Below, piece after piece: positions 1 to 16,653 of a stretch of DNA of 16,653 nt. Made by a program: the position numbers and the translations under genes. The notes beneath the pieces were generated by a model. The model was not told the DNA's origin and searched no databases. It was given only the letters and a program-made list of their open reading frames with translations. Every line of letters starts with the position of its first letter. Within the stretch, counting starts at the first letter, position 1. The stretch is from IMG/VR virus record IMGVR_UViG_2869947659_000004, one strand, 5' to 3'. The stretch is from a virus. Its lineage: Duplodnaviria; Heunggongvirae; Uroviricota; Caudoviricetes.

Positions 1-888
1 ATGCCACTGCTGGATAAGCTGCGTAAGCTGTACGGGGTCGGACCGGTATGCAGTGAACTACATATTGCCCCGTCAACGTATTACCACTGTCAGCAACAGC
101 GACATCATCCTGATAAACGCAGTGCCCGTGCGCAGCGCGATGACTGGCTGAAGAAAGAGATACTGCGCGTATACGATGGGAATCATCAGGTATACGGTGT
201 GCGTAAAGTCTGGCGTCAGTTGTTACGGGAAGGTATCAGAGTGGCCAGATGCACTGTGGCACGTCTCATGGCGGTTATGGGACTTGCCGGCGTTCTCCGG
301 GGTAAAAAGGTCCGTACGACCATCAGCCGGAAAGCCGTTGCCGCAGGCGACCGCGTAAACCGTCAGTTCGTGGCAGAACGACCTGACCAGCTGTGGGTGG
401 CTGATTTTACTTACGTCAGCACATGGCAGGGCTTCGTCTATGTGGCGTTCATTATTGATGTGTTTGCCGGATACATCGTGGGGTGGAGGGTCTCATCGTC
501 CATGGAAACGACATTCGTGCTGGATGCTCTGGAGCAGGCGTTATGGGCCCGTCGACCGTCCGGCACGGTCCATCACAGTGATAAAGGTTCTCAGTATGTA
601 TCGCTGGCCTACACACAGCGGCTTAAGGAAGCCGGATTACTGGCATCAACAGGAAGTACAGGCGACTCGTATGACAACGCGATGGCGGAGAGCATCAATG
701 GTCTTTACAAAGCGGAGGTAATACACCGTAAGAGCTGGAAAAACCGTGCAGAAGTGGAACTGGCCACACTCACGTGGGTGGACTGGTATAATAATCGACG
801 ATTGCTGGAAAGGCTGGGCCACATCCCTCCGGCAGAAGCAGAAAAAGCTTATTATGCTTCCATCGGAAACGATGATCTGGCAGCCTGA
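1..888 (+). CDS. IS3-family transposase OrfB (integrase core, DDE)
   Basis: 295-aa ORF with the IS3-group OrfB signature (…HHSDKGSQY…, …YDNAMAES…); same protein as 6617..7507 (-). Confidence 0.9.
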   Translation: MPLLDKLRKLYGVGPVCSELHIAPSTYYHCQQQRHHPDKRSARAQRDDWLKKEILRVYDGNHQVYGVRKVWRQLLREGIRVARCTVARLMAVMGLAGVLRGKKVRTTISRKAVAAGDRVNRQFVAERPDQLWVADFTYVSTWQGFVYVAFIIDVFAGYIVGWRVSSSMETTFVLDALEQALWARRPSGTVHHSDKGSQYVSLAYTQRLKEAGLLASTGSTGDSYDNAMAESINGLYKAEVIHRKSWKNRAEVELATLTWVDWYNNRRLLERLGHIPPAEAEKAYYASIGNDDLAA

Positions 889-930
889 GTTCACAGATAA
901 AACACTCTCCAGGAAACTCGGGGCGGTTCA
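1..930 (+). mobile_element. IS3-family insertion sequence (IS629/IS1203-like), copy 1; left part lies outside the window
   Basis: orfB translation is identical to the orfB of the complete copy at 6575..7875. The right end ...CTCGGGGCGGTTCA at 930 matches the terminal repeat of copy 2, and flanking sequence diverges immediately after. Confidence 0.85.
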
Positions 931-1170
931 CCCTTCTCCGGTCACCTGTTCATCTTCCGTGGCCGACGGGGTGACATGATTAAAATCCTGTGGGCTGATG
1001 CTGATGGTCTGTGCCTGTTCACCAGACGCCTGGAGGAAGGCCAGTTTATCTGGCCTGCTGTGCGTGACGGCAAGGTATCCATTACCCGCTCGCAACTGGC
1101 AATGCTCCTCGATAAGCTGGACTGGCGTCAGCCAAAAACATCCCGCCTTAATGCACTGACAATGTTGTAA
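931..1170 (+). pseudogene. IS66-family TnpB, C-terminal fragment (5' part displaced by IS629)
   Basis: The frame reads …PFSGHLFIFRGRRGDMIKILWADADGLCLFTRRLEEGQFIWP… from the first base after the IS629 end; this matches the conserved TnpB C-terminus. Confidence 0.8.
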
Positions 1171-1200
1171 AAATGTCATGGCCGGATTATAAAAACGGCC

Positions 1201-2793
1201 ATGAATCAAAAATACCTCATTCGCATTGCAGAACTGGAATGCCAGCTCCGTCAGAAAGACCAGCAACTGAGTCTGGTTGAAGAGACGGAGGCCTTCCTGC
1301 GCTCTGCACTGGCCCGCGCCGAAGAAAAGATCGAAGAAGATGAACGGGAAATAGAACATCTGCGGGCTCAGATAGAAAAACTGCGCCGGATGCTGTTCGG
1401 TACCCGTTCTGAAAAACTGCGTCGTGAAGTTGAACAGGCTGAGGCCCTGCTGAAACAACGCGAACAGGACAGTGATCGTTACAGTGGGCGGGAAGACGAT
1501 CCGCAGGTTCCCCGCCAGTTGCGACAGTCTCGTCATCGTCGCCCGTTACCGGAGCATCTGCCCCGCGAAATAAATCGCCTGGAGCCAGAAGAAAGCTGTT
1601 GCCCGGAGTGTGGCGGTGAGCTGGATTATCTGGGGGAAGTCAGCGCAGAACAACTGGAACTGGTGAGCAGCGCTCTGAAAGTGCTCCGCACAGAACGGGT
1701 AAAAAAAGCCTGTACAAAATGTGACTGCATCGTTGAAGCACCGGCACTATCCCGTCCGATAGAGCGTGGTATCGCGGGCCCGGGGTTACTTGCCCGCGTG
1801 TTAACGGGAAAATACTGCGAACACCTGCCACTGTATCGTCAGAGTGAAATTTTTGCCCGTCAGGGTGTCGAACTGAGCCGTGCATTACTCTCCAACTGGG
1901 TTGACGCGTGCTGCCAGTTAATGACGCCGCTGAATGATGCTCTGTACCGTTATGTAATGAACAGCCGCAAAGTTCACACTGATGACACACCAGTAAAAGT
2001 GCTGGCACCGGGCAGGAAGAAGGCGAAAACAGGATATATCTGGACGTATGTCCGGGATGACAGGAATGCCGGTTCGCCAGAGCCTCCGACGGTCTGGTTC
2101 GCCTACTCACCGGACCATCAGGGTAAACATCCGGAGCAGCACCTTAGTCCCTTCCGGGGTATCCTGCAGGCAGATGCGTTTAATGGTTACGATCGGCTGT
2201 TCAGTGCCGAACGAGAAGGCGGCGCGTTGACGGAAGCAGGATGCTGGGCTCATGCGCGGCGCAAAGTCCACGATGTATATATCAGTACCAAAAGCGCGAC
2301 AGCGGAAGAAGCCCTGAAACTAATCGGTGAGCTGTACGCCATCGAGCACGAAATACGCGGGTTGCCGGTGTCTGAACGCCTGGCGGTCAGGCAAATGCAG
2401 AGTAAACCGCTACTGACTTCCCTGTATAAGCTGATGCAGGAGAAAGAACACACGTTATCGAAAAAATGCCGTCTGAGAGATGCGTTCCGGTATATCAGGA
2501 AGCACTGGGTTGCGTTGTGCAACTTCAGTGATGATGGTCTGGCTGAGGCGGATAATAATGCCGCGGAAAGAGCGCTTCGTGCAGTCTGTCTCGGAAAGAA
2601 AAACTTTATGTTCTTCGGCAGCGATCACGGTGGAGAGCGTGGTGCGCTACTGTACGGGCTGATCGGCACCTGCCGACTGAACGGTATCGATCCGGAAGCG
2701 TATCTGCGCTATATCCTGAGCGTACTGCCGGAATGGCCTTCCAACCGTGTTGACGAACTCCTGCCATGGAACGTAGCACTCACCAATAAATAA
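1201..2793 (+). CDS. IS66-family transposase TnpC
   Basis: 530-aa ORF with N-terminal coiled coil, CxxC…CxxC zinc-binding motif (CPECGGE…CTKCDC) and the IS66 transposase core; RBS-distance start after tnpB. Confidence 0.9.
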   Translation: MNQKYLIRIAELECQLRQKDQQLSLVEETEAFLRSALARAEEKIEEDEREIEHLRAQIEKLRRMLFGTRSEKLRREVEQAEALLKQREQDSDRYSGREDDPQVPRQLRQSRHRRPLPEHLPREINRLEPEESCCPECGGELDYLGEVSAEQLELVSSALKVLRTERVKKACTKCDCIVEAPALSRPIERGIAGPGLLARVLTGKYCEHLPLYRQSEIFARQGVELSRALLSNWVDACCQLMTPLNDALYRYVMNSRKVHTDDTPVKVLAPGRKKAKTGYIWTYVRDDRNAGSPEPPTVWFAYSPDHQGKHPEQHLSPFRGILQADAFNGYDRLFSAEREGGALTEAGCWAHARRKVHDVYISTKSATAEEALKLIGELYAIEHEIRGLPVSERLAVRQMQSKPLLTSLYKLMQEKEHTLSKKCRLRDAFRYIRKHWVALCNFSDDGLAEADNNAAERALRAVCLGKKNFMFFGSDHGGERGALLYGLIGTCRLNGIDPEAYLRYILSVLPEWPSNRVDELLPWNVALTNK

Positions 2794-2908
2794 GCGTCAA
2801 TACGGTGCTCCGTTGACGCTTACTATCGTATTGATTGATCTGCATCAAATTAACGTAAAAGCAACTTCAGATAATACAAATCAGCAACACTGAATATGGG
2901 GAAACATT

Positions 2909-6509: not shown

Positions 6510-6616
6510 GGGATTTTCTCGCTGAAAGGGGTTGTTAAGGAGTAACGGGTTCTTCGGGTTTGCTTCCGGCTGACTGAACCGCCCCGAGTTTCCTGGAGAG
6601 TGTTTTATCTGTGAAC

Positions 6617-7507
6617 TCAGGCTGCCAGATCATCGTTTCCGATGGAAGCATAATAAGCTTTTTCTGCTTCTGCCGGAGGGATGTGGCCCAGCCTTTCCAG
6701 CAATCGTCGATTATTATACCAGTCCACCCACGTGAGTGTGGCCAGTTCCACTTCTGCACGGTTTTTCCAGCTCTTACGGTGTATTACCTCCGCTTTGTAA
6801 AGACCATTGATGCTCTCCGCCATCGCGTTGTCATACGAGTCGCCTGTACTTCCTGTTGATGCCAGTAATCCGGCTTCCTTAAGCCGCTGTGTGTAGGCCA
6901 GCGATACATACTGAGAACCTTTATCACTGTGATGGACCGTGCCGGACGGTCGACGGGCCCATAACGCCTGCTCCAGAGCATCCAGCACGAATGTCGTTTC
7001 CATGGACGATGAGACCCTCCACCCCACGATGTATCCGGCAAACACATCAATAATGAACGCCACATAGACGAAGCCCTGCCATGTGCTGACGTAAGTAAAA
7101 TCAGCCACCCACAGCTGGTCAGGTCGTTCTGCCACGAACTGACGGTTTACGCGGTCGCCTGCGGCAACGGCTTTCCGGCTGATGGTCGTACGGACCTTTT
7201 TACCCCGGAGAACGCCGGCAAGTCCCATAACCGCCATGAGACGTGCCACAGTGCATCTGGCCACTCTGATACCTTCCCGTAACAACTGACGCCAGACTTT
7301 ACGCACACCGTATACCTGATGATTCCCATCGTATACGCGCAGTATCTCTTTCTTCAGCCAGTCATCGCGCTGCGCACGGGCACTGCGTTTATCAGGATGA
7401 TGTCGCTGTTGCTGACAGTGGTAATACGTTGACGGGGCAATATGTAGTTCACTGCATACCGGTCCGACCCCGTACAGCTTACGCAGCTTATCCAGCAGTG
7501 GCATCAC
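6617..7507 (-). CDS. IS3-family transposase OrfB (DDE integrase core)
   Basis: Same translation as 1..888 (+); overlaps orfA by 4 nt, consistent with an OrfAB frameshift fusion. Confidence 0.9.
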
Positions 7508-7821
7508 TGGCGGTCGAACTCCGCCTTCGCAAAATAAGCGGAAGCCTGGCGAAGGATATCGTTACTGCGGCGCAGTTCACGATTTTCACGTTCCAGCTCT
7601 TTCAGACGCTGACGTTCAGCGGTGGTGAGCCCGCCATCACCGCCTCCGGTATCCCGCTCATGCTGGCGTACCCAGACACGCAGAGTCTCCGGTGTACAGC
7701 CAATCTTTGGGGCAATGGAACAAATTGCCGCCCACTGTGAGTCATATTCGCCCTGACTTTCCAGAACCATACGAATCGCCCTCTGACGGACTTCGGGGGA
7801 AAAACGAGTATTTTTAGTCAT
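7504..7821 (-). CDS. IS3-family transposase OrfA (HTH)
   Basis: [57 protein letters not shown]…; 54-nt leader after the left terminal repeat. Confidence 0.9.
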
Positions 7822-7875
7822 CCTGTTTACCTCTTTCTCAGGGAGTTTAGTCTCCAGGATTCCCGGGGCGGTTCA

Positions 7876-8723: not shown

Positions 8724-9026
8724 ATGAGCAGAAAAAACCAACGTTACTCTAAAGAGTTCAAAGCCGAAGCTGTCAGAACGGTTCTTGAAAATCAACTTTC
8801 GATCAGTGAAGGCGCTTCCCGATTATCCCTTCCTGAAGGCACTTTAGGACAATGGGTTACCGCCGCCAGAAAAGGGCTCGGTACTCCTGGTTCCCGCACG
8901 GTGGCTGAACTGGAATCTGAAATTCTGCAACTGCGTAAGGCGTTAAATGAAGCTCGCCTTGAGCGAGATATATTAAAAAAAGCAACAGCGTATTTTGCAC
9001 AGGAGTCGCTGAAAAATACGCGTTAA
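8724..9026 (+). CDS. IS600 transposase OrfA
   Basis: MSRKNQRYSKEFKAEAVRTVLENQLSISEGASRLSL…; HTH plus leucine zipper typical of IS3-family OrfA. Confidence 0.9.
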   Translation: MSRKNQRYSKEFKAEAVRTVLENQLSISEGASRLSLPEGTLGQWVTAARKGLGTPGSRTVAELESEILQLRKALNEARLERDILKKATAYFAQESLKNTR

Positions 9027-9061
9027 TCGAACAATGGCGACAACAATTTCCCATTGAAGCG

Positions 9062-9880
9062 ATGTGTCAGGTATTTGGTGTATCCAGGAGCGGTTATTAC
9101 AACTGGGTACAGCATGAACCCTCAGACAGAAAACAAAGTGATGAGCGGCTAAAACTGGAGATTAAGGTGGCACATATCCGCACTCGCGAAACATATGGAA
9201 CCCGGCGGCTCCAGACGGAGCTGGCAGAGAATGGCATCATCGTTGGTCGTGACCGACTGGCACGTCTTCGTAAGGAGCTAAGGCTACGCTGTAAGCAGAA
9301 ACGTAAGTTCAGAGCGACTACGAACCCGAACCACAATCTGCCAGTTGCGCCAAATCTGCTGAACCAGACGTTCGCTCCTACAGCACCAAATCAGGTCTGG
9401 GTGGCGGACCTGACGTATGTTGCCACACAGGAGGGATGGTTGTACCTCGCTGGCATCAAAGATGTTTATACGTGCGAAATTGTCGGCTACGCCATGGGAG
9501 AGCGCATGACAAAAGAGCTGACAGGTAAAGCCCTGTTTATGGCGCTCAGGAGCCAGCGCCCACCTGCCGGGCTAATCCACCACTCTGATCGAGGTTCACA
9601 GTACTGCGCATACGATTACCGGGTCATACAGGAGCAGTCTGGTCTGAAAACATCAATGTCGCGTAAAGGTCACTGTTACGACAACGCTCCGATGGAAAGC
9701 TTCTGGGGAACGCTGAAAAATGAGAGCCTGAGCCACTATCGTTTTAATAACCGGGATGAAGCCATCTCAGTAATACGGGAATACATTGAGATTTTCTACA
9801 ATCGTCAGCGTCGTCACTCTCGTCTGGGGAATATCTCCCCGGCAGCCTTCAGGGAAAAATATCATCAGATGGCTGCTTAA
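9062..9880 (+). CDS. IS600 transposase OrfB (DDE)
   Basis: 272 aa with the IS3-family integrase core (…IHHSDRGSQY…, …CYDNAPMESFWG…). Confidence 0.9.
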   Translation: MCQVFGVSRSGYYNWVQHEPSDRKQSDERLKLEIKVAHIRTRETYGTRRLQTELAENGIIVGRDRLARLRKELRLRCKQKRKFRATTNPNHNLPVAPNLLNQTFAPTAPNQVWVADLTYVATQEGWLYLAGIKDVYTCEIVGYAMGERMTKELTGKALFMALRSQRPPAGLIHHSDRGSQYCAYDYRVIQEQSGLKTSMSRKGHCYDNAPMESFWGTLKNESLSHYRFNNRDEAISVIREYIEIFYNRQRRHSRLGNISPAAFREKYHQMAA

Positions 9881-9923
9881 AAAAAGAACAAATGGTAGTG
9901 TCCGCTATTGCCAGTACACCTCA

Positions 9924-11293
9924 CAGTACATTGACCAGGATTTCGCGCTGTTATTTTTCTCAATTCGCAGAGCTTTATTGCCGCTGTCATCAACCAGTGT
10001 GCGTCTGCCATACATACCGTCCCAGCCATAAGGTTTCAGCTGATTGTCTGTAGCTTTTTTGGCATCGTAAAAAATTACAGACTCTGAGGTGGTAACCGGC
10101 CTGTCTGGAACAACCACCCCGGCAGTACCATTAACAAACGCAGAAGACTTACCCGCGCAGCTCAGAATCGCCGTTGCCAGACGGTCGGAAATAATCCCAC
10201 GGCGAGCCCATGAACTGAAATGGCTCGCCCTGTCCTGTGACGTCCAGGTGGCTGAGCTGTCACGCCATTTCGAACCGTAATAACCGATACCCGGAATGTC
10301 CGGGTCTTCTTCCGGTTTGTTCGTCGGCACATTCACCCCGTTCTCATCGGTCATGAACGGTACGAAATGGATATTCTTTTCCGTTTTATTTTTATAGCTG
10401 CCGTACACCGTCTGGTACGTGGATTCGTTCTTCTGCTTCCAGAAATACGTCGTGTCCCCGCATATCCAGGGAACACCGCCAGCAGAGCCACCGACGCACT
10501 GGCCTGCCATATCCGCCAGGTCTGCACGGAATTTATCAACCAGCGCACCAAACTGTGCGGCATGATTTGCCGGCGTACCGCCAAAATCAAATTCCCCCTG
10601 CATCCACACCACGGCAAACAGCACATTTTTCGGGTTCTTCTCCAGTGCCGCTTTTGTTCGACCGATAAGGTCCTTATACAGCGGCTTGTCCACACCCCAG
10701 CGGGTTGAATTCTCCGAGGCACCACTCGCGTCACTGTATGTGCCATCAGCTCCGGTGGTGAACGCTGAACCACCACGACAGCACGGAACCAGCAGAATGC
10801 CCGCATTCGCCGGTATAAACGGCAGCAGTTTTTTGGCGATATGCAGCCCCTGCCCCACGGTTCCGTACTGCCCCTTTGACAGGTCCGCTTTCGGATGGTT
10901 AAGACGGCTCATGTCCTGCACATCATGCAGACAATGGTCCGCCGGAATGATGTCGTTATATTTGCATGCTGCACCGCCCGGTGTCACCGTACTGCGACGC
11001 GCCAGTTGCTTAATACGCGGGTCCGGACGGTCATATGTCCCCGGCAGCGGAAGGCCTTCACCATACGACATGCCGTTTGACTGCCCTGCCAGAACCACAA
11101 CAAAGTAATACTCCGGGTCGCTGGTGGCGCTGATTACTGCACCTTCTGCTGCAATCGCCTGCATCAGAGTATAAGGGGTTATGGCCACCGGACTACCAAA
11201 CGGCTGCCAGCCCTCTTTCAGTTTATGTGTCAGCTTTTCCGCAAGATCTGACGGCGACGCCGCCCTGACAACATCATAGTGTTTAAAAGCCAT
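9924..11293 (-). pseudogene. nanS-p-like sialate O-acetylesterase (prophage NanS-p / SASA-SGNH hydrolase), N-terminal 456 codons
   Basis: N-terminal prophage-type domain followed by the SGNH/SASA motif VVVLAGQSNGMSYGEG. Located between the tRNA cluster and the lysis cassette, as nanS-p is in Stx-type prophages. Interrupted by IS600 after codon 456. Confidence 0.75.
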
Positions 11294-11476
11294 GAATCCT
11301 CCCGGCCGGGATAATATTGTGAGTAAAATGAGGAGCGGGCTGAAGTCCGGAAGTTACAGGACAATGGCAGAAGAGAGACGACAGCCCGCAATTCGAAAAA
11401 GACCGCGCAGTTGCGCAGAGTGATTACTATGGGGTATTATTCGCCAGCTGAAATATTACTTCACGTTTTATTGTTT

Positions 11477-11512
11477 ATTCCTTGCCGCCCGCGTCTCCCA
11501 GCGCGGGCTTTT
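11477..11512 (+). terminator. Hairpin followed by a T7 run in the tRNA-to-nanS-p spacer
   Basis: GCCCGCG-TCTCCCA-GCGCGGGC followed by TTTTTTT on the plus strand; a second GC hairpin follows at about 11519..11545. Confidence 0.4.
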
Positions 11513-11737
11513 TTTGCCCACAAGAAAGCCCCTCCGGAGAGGGGCTGGAGAGTGGCGCTATGTGCCATTGCATGGTGCCGGGTGCCTCCCGGTGAATTCA
11601 GTACCAGCACCTGAATCCGCGATTATCCCATATACCTACTCGCTGATTGCCCCTCCGCACAGGGGGATTCACCATGCCAGTTTCTTTTAACAAACTCCCC
11701 GCAAACCAGACAACAGTCAACCGTCTGAATTGTGAGA

Positions 11738-11766
11738 CATTTAAAAAAAAAGCCCGCAAAAGCGAG
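11738..11766 (-). terminator. Rho-independent terminator downstream of the tRNA cluster
   Basis: On the minus strand: GCTCGC-TTTT-GCGGGC followed by T9. Confidence 0.55.
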
Positions 11767-11782
11767 CCAGGGAAAATAAGTG

Positions 11783-11859
11783 TGGCGCGTTGTACTGGAT
11801 TCGAACCAGTGACCGATTGCTTAGAAGGCAATTGCTCTGTCCGGCTGAGCTAACAACGC
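11783..11859 (-). tRNA. tRNA-Arg (anticodon UCU)
   Basis: Cloverleaf read by hand: acceptor GCGTTGT/ACAACGC, anticodon loop CTTCTAA, T-arm ACTGG-TTCGAAT-CCAGT, encoded CCA. Confidence 0.85.
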
Positions 11860-11872
11860 ATGATGCAGATAA

Positions 11873-11949
11873 TGGACCGCCATCGGGGACTTGAACCCCG
11901 CGCAGCCAGCTTCGAAGGCTGGCGCTCTTTCCTGATGAGCTAATGGCGG
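11873..11949 (-). tRNA. tRNA-Arg (anticodon UCG)
   Basis: Acceptor CCGCCAT/ATGGCGG, anticodon loop CTTCGAA, T-arm CGGGG-TTCAAGT-CCCCG, encoded CCA. Confidence 0.8.
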
Positions 11950-11956
11950 TATGTGA

Positions 11957-12032
11957 TGGTGGCCCTTGCTGGATTTGCACCAGCGACCTGGCGATTATGA
12001 GTCGCTCGCTCTCACCACTGAGCTAAAGGGCC
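11957..12032 (-). tRNA. tRNA with CAU anticodon (Ile2/Met type, ileZ-like)
   Basis: Acceptor GGCCCTT/AAGGGCC, anticodon loop CTCATAA, T-arm GCTGG-TGCAAAT-CCAGC, encoded CCA. First of three in the order CAU / Arg / Arg, as in the ileZ-argN-argO cluster of Stx-type phages. Confidence 0.8.
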
Positions 12033-13105: not shown

Positions 13106-13501
13106 TTACTGATAGTGTTTTATGTTCAGATAATACCCGATGACCTTGTCATGCAGCTCCACCGATTTTGAGAACGACAGTGACTTCCGTCCCAGCCTTG
13201 CCAGATGTTGTCTCAGATTCAGATTATGTCGCTCAATGCGCTGAGTGTAACGCTTGCTGATAACGTGCAGCTTTCCCTTCAGGCGTGATTCATACAGCGG
13301 CCAGCCATCCGTCATCCATACCACGACCTCAAAGGCCGACAGCAGGCTCAGAAGACGCTCCAGTGTGGCCAGAGTGCGTTCACCGAAGACGTGCGCCACA
13401 ACCGTCCTCCGTATCCTGTCATACGCGTAAAACAGCCAGCGCTGACGTGATTTAGCACCGACGTAGCCCCACTGTTCGTCCATTTCAGCGCAGACAATCA
13501 C
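13106..13501 (-). CDS. insB: IS1 InsB
   Basis: [28 protein letters not shown]… is the characteristic InsB sequence. Confidence 0.95.
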
Positions 13502-13527
13502 ATCACTGCCCGGTTATATGCGCGAGG

Positions 13528-13803
13528 TTACCGACTGCGGCCTGAGTTTTTTAAGTGACGTAAAACCGTGTTGAGGCCAACGCCCATAATGCGTGCACTG
13601 GCGCGACATCCGACGCCATTCATGGCCATATCAATGATTTTCTGGTGCGTACCGGGCTGAGAGGCGGTGTAAGTGAACTGTAGTTGCCATGTTTTACGGC
13701 AATGAGAGCAGAGATAGCGCTGATGTCCGGCAGTGCTTTTGCCGTTACGCACCACGCCTTCAGTAGCGGAGCAGGAAGGACATCTGATGGAAATGGAAGC
13801 CAC
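13528..13803 (-). CDS. insA: IS1 InsA
   Basis: [43 protein letters not shown]… is the characteristic InsA sequence. Confidence 0.95.
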
Positions 13804-13858: not shown

Positions 13859-14106
13859 CGCTCGACGAGTGGAAACCAAAACGGTTCAGTCTCCCAATAA
13901 CAAACACTACCCTGGTGAAATACGGAAAACTAGGATACATCGTTCCAAGACCACAAAAAATTCGTGGGCGTTGGCTGATAGATCGCCGAGCAGTATTTGT
14001 TGGGCCTGGTGAAACGGGAATTGCGCCGGAAATTCATACTGGCGATGATGATGCACTGAAGGAGATTTTAACTCATGTCACCGAGGCCACGAAAAAACAG
14101 CACTGA
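13859..14106 (+). pseudogene. xis: Excisionase (lambda Xis-like), start codon removed by IS1
   Basis: …PLDEWKPKRFSLPITNTTLVKYGKLGYIVPRPQKIRGRWLIDRRAV… resembles lambda Xis (…LTLQEW…VRRWVRECRIFPPPVKDGREYLF…). No start codon exists after the IS1 end, and the 3' end overlaps int as in lambda. Confidence 0.6.
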
Positions 14107-14899
14107 CGTAGCCGGTCTTTACGAAAAGTTTGATCGCAGAACTGGCAGAGTTTACTACCAGTATAAAAATCCTGTGACTGGAAAATTTCACGGACTCGGA
14201 ACAGACAAAGGTAAGGCAGAAAAAATCGCTTCCACAGCCAATCAGCGAATAGCTGCAGCAGAAGCTGAATATTTCATGCGCAAAATTGATGAAAGTCCGT
14301 CAGCAACAAAACGTCGGGGTATCAGATTAAAGGCATGGGTTGATCGATATCTGAAAATACAGGACACGCGACTGAAAAATGGAGATATTGCAGCTACAAC
14401 TCACAAAGAAAAAACTCGAATGGCTGCATACCTGGTTTCCCGTCTGGGAAACCACCCATTGAAAGAACTGGAAGTAAGAGACTTTGCATTAATACTGGAT
14501 GAGTGGCTGGATAAAGACATGGTCAGCACAGCGAGAGTAAATCGTGGATTATGGGTTGATATTTATAAAGAAGCACAGCATGCAGGGGAAGTTCCTCCTG
14601 GATGGAATCCTCCGGAGGCTACCCGTAAACCGATCCCTAAAGTAACCAGAGCCAGGCTCACCATGGAAGACTGGCAAAAAATTTACAATGCAACGCCTGA
14701 AAAACACTTTATCCGTAACGCAATGCTTCTTGCGATTGTTACTGGTCAGCGCCGTGATGACATTTGCCACATGCGTTTTTCAGATGTGTGGAACGAACAC
14801 TTGCATATCACCCAGGGAAAAACCGGAATGCGTCTGGCGTTACCGCTTACACTACGCTGTGATGCCATTGGGATAACGTTAAAAGAAGTTATTGATGGG
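14075..14899 (+). pseudogene. int: Phage integrase (tyrosine recombinase, lambda Int family), 3'-truncated by IS600
   Basis: N-terminal arm-binding and core-binding regions are present, but the ORF runs straight into the IS600 left end at 14900, so the C-terminal catalytic region including the Tyr is missing from this window. Confidence 0.85.
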
Positions 14900-15413
14900 T
14901 GAGGTAGCCTGAGTTTAACGGACACTCCTTCCTGAAATAGAATGGCATCAGAAGGAGCTAATAATGAGCAGAAAAAACCAACGTTACTCTAAAGAGTTCA
15001 AAGCCGAAGCTGTCAGAACGGTTCTTGAAAATCAACTTTCGATCAGTGAAGGCGCTTCCCGATTATCCCTTCCTGAAGGCACTTTAGGACAATGGGTTAC
15101 CGCCGCCAGAAAAGGGCTCGGTACTCCTGGTTCCCGCACGGTGGCTGAACTGGAATCTGAAATTCTGCAACTGCGTAAGGCGTTAAATGAAGCTCGCCTT
15201 GAGCGAGATATATTAAAAAAAGCAACAGCGTATTTTGCACAGGAGTCGCTGAAAAATACGCGTTAATCGAACAATGGCGACAACAATTTCCCATTGAAGC
15301 GATGTGTCAGGTATTTGGTGTATCCAGGAGCGGTTATTACAACTGGGTACAGCATGAACCCTCAGACAGAAAACAAAGTGATGAGCGGCTAAAACTGGAG
15401 ATTAAGGTGGCAC
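14900..15413 (+). mobile_element. IS600, second copy, left 514 bp only; interrupted by IS2
   Basis: Identical to 8660..9173 of the complete copy; identity stops at 15413 where the IS2 terminal repeat begins. Confidence 0.9.
14964..15266 (+). CDS. IS600 transposase OrfA (copy 2)
   Basis: Identical 100-aa translation to 8724..9026. Confidence 0.9.
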   Translation: MSRKNQRYSKEFKAEAVRTVLENQLSISEGASRLSLPEGTLGQWVTAARKGLGTPGSRTVAELESEILQLRKALNEARLERDILKKATAYFAQESLKNTR

Positions 15414-15424
15414 TGGATTTGCCC

Positions 15425-16330
15425 CTATATTTCCAGACATCTGTTATCACTTAACCCATTACAAGCCCGCTGCCGCAGATATTCCCGTGGCGAGCGATAA
15501 CCCAGCGCACTATGCGGATGCCATTCGTTATAATGTTCGAACGCCTCTGCAAGGTTCTTTGCTGCCGTTAACCCGTCTGGTTTGGGCATGATACTGATGT
15601 AGTCACGCTTTATCGTTTTCACGAAGCTCTCTGCTATTCCGTTACTCTCCGGACTCCGCACCGCCGTGTTCTTCGGTTCAAGTCCCAACATCCGGGCGAA
15701 CTGGCGTGTTTCATTAGCCCGGTAGCATGAACCATTATCCGTCAGCCACTCCACTGGAGACGACGGAAGATCGTTGCCGAAGCGGCGTTCCACCGCTCCC
15801 AGCATGACGTCCTGTACTGTTTCACTGTTGAAGCCGCCGGTAGTCACCGCCCAGTGCAGTGCCTCACGATCACAGCAGTCCAGCGCGAACGTGACACGCA
15901 GTCTCTCTCCGTTATCACAGCAGAACTCGAACCCGTCAGAGCACCATCGCTGATTGCTTTCTTTCACGGCCACTCTGCCTGTATGTGCCCGTTTCGATGG
16001 CGGTACAGCAGGTTTTCGCTCAAGCAACAGCGCATTCTGGCGCATGATCCGGTAAACACGTTTGGCATTGATCGCAGGCATACCATCAAGTTCTGCCTGT
16101 CTGCGAAGCAGCGCCCATACCCGACGATAACCATACGTGGGCAGCTCTCCGATAACATGGTGTATACGGAGAAGCACATCCGTATCATCAGTGTGACGAC
16201 TGCGGCGGCCATCCATCCAGTCATCGGTTCGTCTGAGAATGACGTGCAACTGCGCACGCGACACCCGGAGACAACGGCTGACTAAGCTTACTCCCCATCC
16301 CCGGGCAATAAGGGCGCGTGCGCTATCCAC
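15425..16330 (-). CDS. insD: IS2 transposase InsD (OrfB)
   Basis: [43 protein letters not shown]…, 301 aa. Confidence 0.95.
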
Positions 16331-16653
16331 TTTTTTGCCCGTCCATATTCAACGGCTTCTTTGAGGAGTTCATTTTCCATCGTTTTCTTGCCGAGCAGGC
16401 GCTGGAGTTCTTTAATCTGCTTCATGGCGGCAGCAAGTTCAGAGGCAGGAACAACCTGTTCTCCGGCGGCCACAGCAGTAAGACTTCCTTCCTGGTATTG
16501 CTTACGCCAGAGAAATAACTGGCTGGCTGCTACACCATGTTGCCGGGCAACGAGGGAGACCGTCATCCCCGGTTCAAAGCTCTGCTGAACAATTGCGATC
16601 TTTTCCTGTGTGGTACGCCGTCTGCGTTTCTCCGGCCCTAAGACATCAATCAT
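16288..16653 (-). CDS. insC: IS2 InsC (OrfA)
   Basis: [56 protein letters not shown]…; the start codon is at the last three bases of the window. Confidence 0.95.

Follow-up and report, generated by a model that had tools for sequence, protein, structure and literature searches.

The left edge of the window (the whole 16,653-nucleotide stretch of viral DNA analyzed here, IMG/VR record IMGVR_UViG_2869947659_000004) carries part of an IS629-type insertion sequence that runs directly into a tnpB fragment and a complete tnpC gene of the IS66 family. This arrangement raises the question of whether the locus should be read as separate partial transposase genes or as a single element interrupted by another. 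We conclude with high confidence that it is a nested insertion, in which an IS629 isoform lies within tnpB of an IS66-family element that is most likely nonautonomous and that sits at a deletion junction of a prophage. Both partners are known insertion sequences, found here in a decayed, stx-less, IS-crowded lambdoid prophage, and nothing about the pair is new in kind. Scars of this type are common in Shigella-like Escherichia genomes, and the significance of this one is mostly a matter of annotation: the right label is one IS66-family element interrupted by an IS629 isoform, not a set of separate partial transposase genes.

The right part of an IS66-family element abuts an IS629-type element

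Positions 931 to 2823 of the window (plus strand; 1,893 bp) form the right part of a 2,506-bp IS66-family element. Among IS66-family copies, this segment was matched over its full length in Escherichia coli FDAARGOS_943 (99.4% identity) and on pINV of E. coli RMDEC465 (99.2%), with the match running from exactly 931 to exactly 2823. The coordinates proposed in an earlier note on this DNA, which had been written from the sequence alone, were thus exact. The segment opens with a 3' fragment of tnpB (positions 931 to 1170, plus strand) that consists of a duplicated Pro38, codons 39 to 116, and the stop codon; from position 931 onward, the codons CCC TTC TCC GGT CAC CTG begin the reading PFSGHLFIFRG. 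The fragment was recognized by the Pfam model TnpB_IS66 (31 to 100 of 101; E value, 4e-24) and by the NCBIfam model IS66_TnpB (29 to 89 of 90; E value, 5.4e-23). An antisense open reading frame of 202 amino acids (positions 928 to 1536) was considered and set aside as being without support.

The second gene, tnpC (positions 1201 to 2793, plus strand), encodes a full-length IS66-family DDE transposase of 530 amino acids that is recognized by Pfam, by NCBIfam, and by comparison with a homolog. All four IS66 transposase domains (leucine-zipper LZ, zinc finger, DDE, and C-terminal element) are complete by Pfam, with PF03050 matched over 1 to 283 of 284 (E value, 7.9e-96) and PF13005, PF13007, and PF13817 also present. 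The NCBIfam model transpos_IS66 (NF033517) scored 439 bits against a cutoff of 180 (E value, 1.5e-131), and the protein is 99% identical to the 530-amino-acid TnpC of E. coli FDAARGOS_943, which is annotated as intact. The earlier description of TnpC as intact is borne out by these matches. Downstream of tnpC, the element closes with a right terminal inverted repeat (positions 2800 to 2823, plus strand; ...GTTGACGCTTAC).

Upstream of the tnpB fragment, positions 1 to 930 (plus strand) hold the right 930 bp of a 1,301-bp IS629-type element of the IS3 family. This portion contains orfB (positions 1 to 888, plus strand), which encodes a 295-amino-acid protein with an rve integrase core (Pfam rve, E value of 1.4e-27, together with HTH_21; NCBIfam transpos_IS3, E value of 2.6e-92), and it ends in a right terminal inverted repeat (positions 906 to 930, plus strand; ...GGGGCGGTTCA). 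A second copy of the same element farther along the window serves as an internal control for this boundary. Positions 1 to 930 are 100% identical to the reverse complement of positions 6575 to 7504, and the identity stops exactly at 930, which therefore fixes the IS629 right end. The junction lies at 930/931, with PFSGHLFIFRG reading on from it, in agreement with the earlier statement that the IS629 end adjoins tnpB codons exactly. On sequence and domain comparison, the matches that define the IS66 and IS629 boundaries and parts are far above chance.

The left half of the IS66-family element lies directly upstream of IS629

When the assembly collection was queried for proteins identical to TnpC, a single location came up, on contig CP026766.1 (assembly GCA_002949475.1). 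The locus taken from this contig (L003, in which each position equals the window position plus 8800) agrees with the window at every base of a 12,793-bp overlap and supplies a further 8.8 kb upstream. By BLAST, the window is absent from all complete E. coli genomes and phage records, and the best match to its first 3.2 kb in complete E. coli genomes is 95% identical.

The earlier note had predicted that tnpA and the 5' part of tnpB would be found upstream of IS629, and this is where they are. The left end of the IS66 element lies at L003 position 7814, where the sequence starts with GTAAGCG (GTAAGCGTAAAC...). It is followed by an intact tnpA of 139 amino acids (L003 7900 to 8319) and by a 5' fragment of tnpB holding codons 1 to 38 (L003 8316 to 8429). 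The IS629 copy begins immediately thereafter, and its first three bases, TGA, provide the stop codon of the N-terminal TnpB fragment. The 3-bp duplication that had been proposed for IS629 was also present: CCC, the codon for tnpB Pro38, occurs on both sides of the insertion, at L003 8427 to 8429 on the left and at window positions 931 to 933 (plus strand) on the right. TnpB is thus interrupted by IS629, as had been suggested, with the 3' fragment in the window and codons 1 to 38 directly upstream of the IS. The whole interrupted element spans L003 7814 to 11623, ending in the window at 2823, where the terminal ...CGCTTAC is the reverse complement of the GTAAGCG at the left end. The left end and the reverse complement of the right end (GTAAGCGTCAAC...) agree at 20 of 24 bases. 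A match to the AfaR small RNA over the left end (L003 7787 to 7892, minus strand) scored 41.6 bits against a gathering score of 100 and was taken as noise or as shared IS-end sequence.

In silico excision of the IS together with one CCC gave a 2,506-bp IS66 element; in E. coli RMDEC465, pINV bears an uninterrupted copy with which this element aligns from 1 to 2506 at 99.2% identity. The rebuilt element carries tnpA (87 to 506; 139 amino acids), tnpB (503 to 853; 116 amino acids), and tnpC (884 to 2476; 530 amino acids), with tnpA and tnpB overlapping by ATGA. Mismatches to the reference IS66 copies are spread evenly, at 0.8% per half, and the two halves therefore belong together. Three consecutive genes, the tnpA/tnpB overlap, a DDE-type TnpC, GTAAGCG inverted repeats, and the size of the element all place it in the IS66 family. 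An 8-bp target duplication is expected in this family (PMC6778807), and a direct duplication of this length does not flank the element; its absence is no argument against family membership, as later deletion or recombination explains it (see below).

The closest named relative is ISEc43, and copies labeled by NCBI as belonging to the ISEc43 family are about 94 to 95% identical to the element in the window. ISEc43-like copies on the FDAARGOS_943 chromosome and on RMDEC465 pINV share its tnpA-tnpB-tnpC order, its GTAAGCG ends, and its 2,506-bp length at 99.2 to 99.4% identity; unlike these copies, the element studied here has a tnpB split by an IS and lacks an 8-bp duplication. The three-gene layout and the DDE TnpC are also common to IS679 and IS66, a likeness drawn from description rather than alignment. 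The closest E. coli copy, that of FDAARGOS_943 (L001 1 to 2393; 99.4%), has itself lost part of tnpA to an oppositely oriented IS66 element of the ISSfl3 type, and with 13 matching places this genome is likewise IS-rich.

The inserted element is a 1,301-bp isoform of IS629

IS629 is a 1.31-kb member of the IS3 family (PMC10758439). The copy within tnpB (copy A) extends from L003 8430 to 9730, so that the window lacks its leftmost 371 bp, and contains orfA (L003 8484 to 8801) and the whole of orfB (L003 8801 to 9688) in the 0 and -1 frames, with the -1 frame open throughout the overlap. Its left and right ends have TGAACCGCCCCG in common and take the TG...CA form (TGAACC...GGTTCA). Over its whole length, the copy is 96.4% identical to the annotated O157 IS629 in the Stx2a phage Stx2_499, with a single 9-bp gap. 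The TG...CA ends, the 3-bp duplication, the reading frames with their frameshift signal, and an identity to IS629 of at least about 95% identify it as an IS629 isoform. Frames, ends, duplication length, and ALIL frameshift pseudoknot are those shared by IS629, IS1203, and IS3411 (IS3 family, IS51 group); unlike canonical IS629, the isoform in the window is 9 bp shorter. The label IS629 given earlier therefore stands as far as the type is concerned and needs correction in that the copy is not the canonical 1,310-bp element.

The difference between 1,301 and 1,310 bp is an in-frame 9-bp deletion, located at L003 8796-8797 in copy A and at window positions 7508-7509 (minus strand) in the second copy. 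Owing to this deletion, OrfA ends in FDRQ* versus FDRLWKK*, 3 residues fewer. Among complete E. coli genomes, every one of the top hits retains the 9 bases. We considered whether it removes the frameshift site (an A-run) and rejected this reading, as the deletion lies 3' of stem 1 and both frames are open; the published shift site in the ALIL structure is 5' of stem 1 (PMC5009743, a review). The 9 bases fall between stem-loops 1 and 2 of the pseudoknot, bringing the linker down to about 36 nucleotides, and the pseudoknot is still detected at 101 bits. By this comparison, the isoform probably keeps its frameshift signal, with a shortened linker.

The second copy (copy B; positions 6575 to 7875, minus strand) is complete and 100% identical to copy A, and it served to define the IS ends. 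Situated upstream of the holin gene, it has the DUF826 and DUF1378 genes on either side and is flanked by a GAC duplication. Because the two copies are identical and have different duplications (CCC for copy A, GAC for copy B), the isoform must have moved recently.

The insertion most likely leaves the IS66 element nonautonomous

The most economical account of the locus is that the 1,301-bp isoform inserted at codon 38 of tnpB (CCC, Pro) in the 2,506-bp IS66-family element and duplicated these 3 bp in doing so. The result is a simple IS3-type insertion that divides tnpB into fragments of 38 and 79 codons and leaves tnpA, tnpC, and both terminal repeats intact. The N-terminal TnpB fragment stops at 38 residues, the other 78 codons are left without a start, and tnpC now lies 1.3 kb from tnpA and from the 5' end of the element. 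We infer that TnpB cannot be produced from the interrupted gene and, because of this, that the IS66 element is most likely unable to move autonomously. [quoted passage not shown] No explicit statement of a requirement for tnpB was found in the other papers searched. A consensus scan of the interval between the IS629 end and tnpC returned no sigma-70-like promoter, a type of scan that is weak evidence either way.

Because both IS66 ends are present, the 3.8-kb composite could be movable in trans by the proteins of a related IS66 copy. The earlier note's verdict of probable immobility is reasonable for autonomous movement alone. Precise loss of IS629 would restore tnpB.

Alternative readings and recurrence of IS629 in tnpB

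A contrasting reading holds that the IS66 segment is a true truncation, with tnpA and the 5' end of tnpB deleted by IS629 or by an adjacent rearrangement. Within the window the left half is indeed invisible, and IS-mediated truncations are common at the locus (e.g., the esterase gene next to an IS600-type element, discussed below) and extend to the tnpA of the FDAARGOS_943 copy. Recovery of the left end, tnpA, and tnpB codons 1 to 38 directly upstream on CP026766.1, with the CCC duplication, together with the end-to-end alignment of the rebuilt element to an intact copy, refutes this reading, to which we assign essentially no weight. An assembly artefact, produced by collapsed or misjoined IS repeats, is only slightly less remote. 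The 16.6-kb stretch is certainly repeat dense, with two identical IS629 copies, IS600 twice, IS1, and IS2, but a misjoin would not be expected to leave a 3-bp duplication this clean and a tnpB that is restored perfectly in frame; moreover, CP026766.1 is a chromosome-scale record of 4.68 Mb, and the same architecture occurs in an independent genome.

That genome, E. coli MS15047 (NZ_CP082100.1, positions 2248371 to 2251920), bears on a third reading, in which IS66::IS629 would be a composite of some age, itself spread as a unit by trans mobilization. In MS15047, IS629 (L002 3822 to 5131) is inserted at the very CCC of tnpB that is hit in the window, with matching orientation and duplication, within a diverged ISEc43-type host element, so that the locus likewise reads tnpA, tnpB 5' fragment, IS629, tnpB 3' fragment, and tnpC. 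A spreading composite would explain this shared junction and would be compatible with the two intact ends of the IS66 element in the window. The two loci nevertheless differ in ways that make it improbable, if somewhat less so than an artefact. The MS15047 host is 87 to 94% identical to the element in the window, and ISEc45 additionally disrupts its tnpC; its IS629 is the canonical 1,310-bp form rather than the 1,301-bp isoform. Divergence between the loci is unequal, at 3.8% for IS629, 6.2% for the IS66 right part, and 13% for the IS66 left part. In addition, each IS629 has a close counterpart elsewhere (the second copy in the window, at 100%; the O157 phage copy for MS15047, at 99.3%), which fits two recent, separate insertions. 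The junction is found at >96% identity in no complete E. coli genome, and the exact TnpC was found only once in the assembly collection.

Separate hits on a favored site therefore fit better than one old event, given both the unequal divergence of the parts and the fact that each IS629 is almost identical to another copy, for which gene conversion among IS copies may be an alternative cause. In E. coli TUM9803, IS629 (L007 1822 to 3131) lies in ISEc23, 18 bp upstream of the CCC site. Whether the region around codon 38 of IS66-family tnpB (GAT AAT CCC TTC) is a favored IS629-type target is a tentative suggestion that we regard as rather doubtful. IS66 and IS629 sequences occur this close together in 14 of 5,426 genomes, and any target preference would therefore be modest. 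If the suggestion is correct, IS629-type elements would repeatedly disable the IS66 family, a hot spot of interest to IS specialists only.

The nested pair marks a deletion junction in the prophage

The 8 bp to the left of the IS66 element (GAACAACA) differ from the 8 bp to its right (TATCGTAT; positions 2824 to 2831), and the element therefore did not arrive by simple insertion alone. E. coli CB6837 has a related intact prophage to which the right flank is 100% identical over 577 bp, with homology starting exactly at the IS66 end; leftward of this point, that prophage carries the terminase and portal genes. The left flank on CP026766.1 is a 31-codon fragment of a tail-fiber-assembly gene beside potB and is 99% identical to prophage tail-fiber-assembly genes. 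The IS66 element thus joins a tail-fiber-assembly fragment to the lysis/cos region, with the morphogenesis genes missing from between them, and the remaining gene order is collinear with that of the intact prophage minus the head and tail genes. On these sequence comparisons, IS66 lies at the deletion junction of a decayed lambdoid prophage, with its right side at the original cos-proximal site. The missing 8-bp duplication marks where the prophage lost its head and tail genes.

Most likely, the morphogenesis genes were lost through recombination between two IS66 copies or through an IS66-mediated adjacent deletion; one genome cannot tell these two mechanisms apart. In published work (PMC6778807), a single IS66 copy whose 8-bp flanks do not match is the signature left when two copies recombine. 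The Agrobacterium plasmid pAt15955 likewise has a single IS66 copy with unlike 8-bp flanks where a large deletion occurred. In that case the two parental copies were themselves seen (PMC6778807), whereas the parental state here is taken from the related intact prophage of CB6837. The locus is a small, concrete case of prophage erosion by insertion sequences in IS-rich Escherichia/Shigella genomes.

Other features of the prophage

As in Stx phages, a cluster of tRNA-Arg(tct), tRNA-Arg(tcg), and tRNA-Met(cat) genes (positions 11294 to 12032) follows a DNA methyltransferase gene. The interval between the tRNA cluster and the esterase gene (nanS-p type), where stxAB would sit, measures only 489 bp, and stx genes are absent from this tRNA-esterase interval of the prophage. 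Within positions 8724 to 11293, an IS3-family element (orfA, 8724 to 9026; orfB, 9062 to 9880; annotated as IS600 at related loci) adjoins the SASA-family esterase gene. The latter has 462 codons versus 654 in E. coli CB6837 and is probably truncated.

Insertion sequences also crowd the right end of the window, and the overall load (IS1, IS2, IS600-type, IS629-type, and IS66-type) is suggestive of Shigella. IS1 occupies positions 13106 to 13803 (minus strand) and is followed by a 275-codon open reading frame (positions 14075 to 14902) that was read by eye as a phage integrase fragment and has no NCBIfam family match. A second copy of the IS600-type orfA lies at positions 14964 to 15266, and an IS2 element (positions 15425 to 16653, minus strand) appears to cut this IS600-type element.
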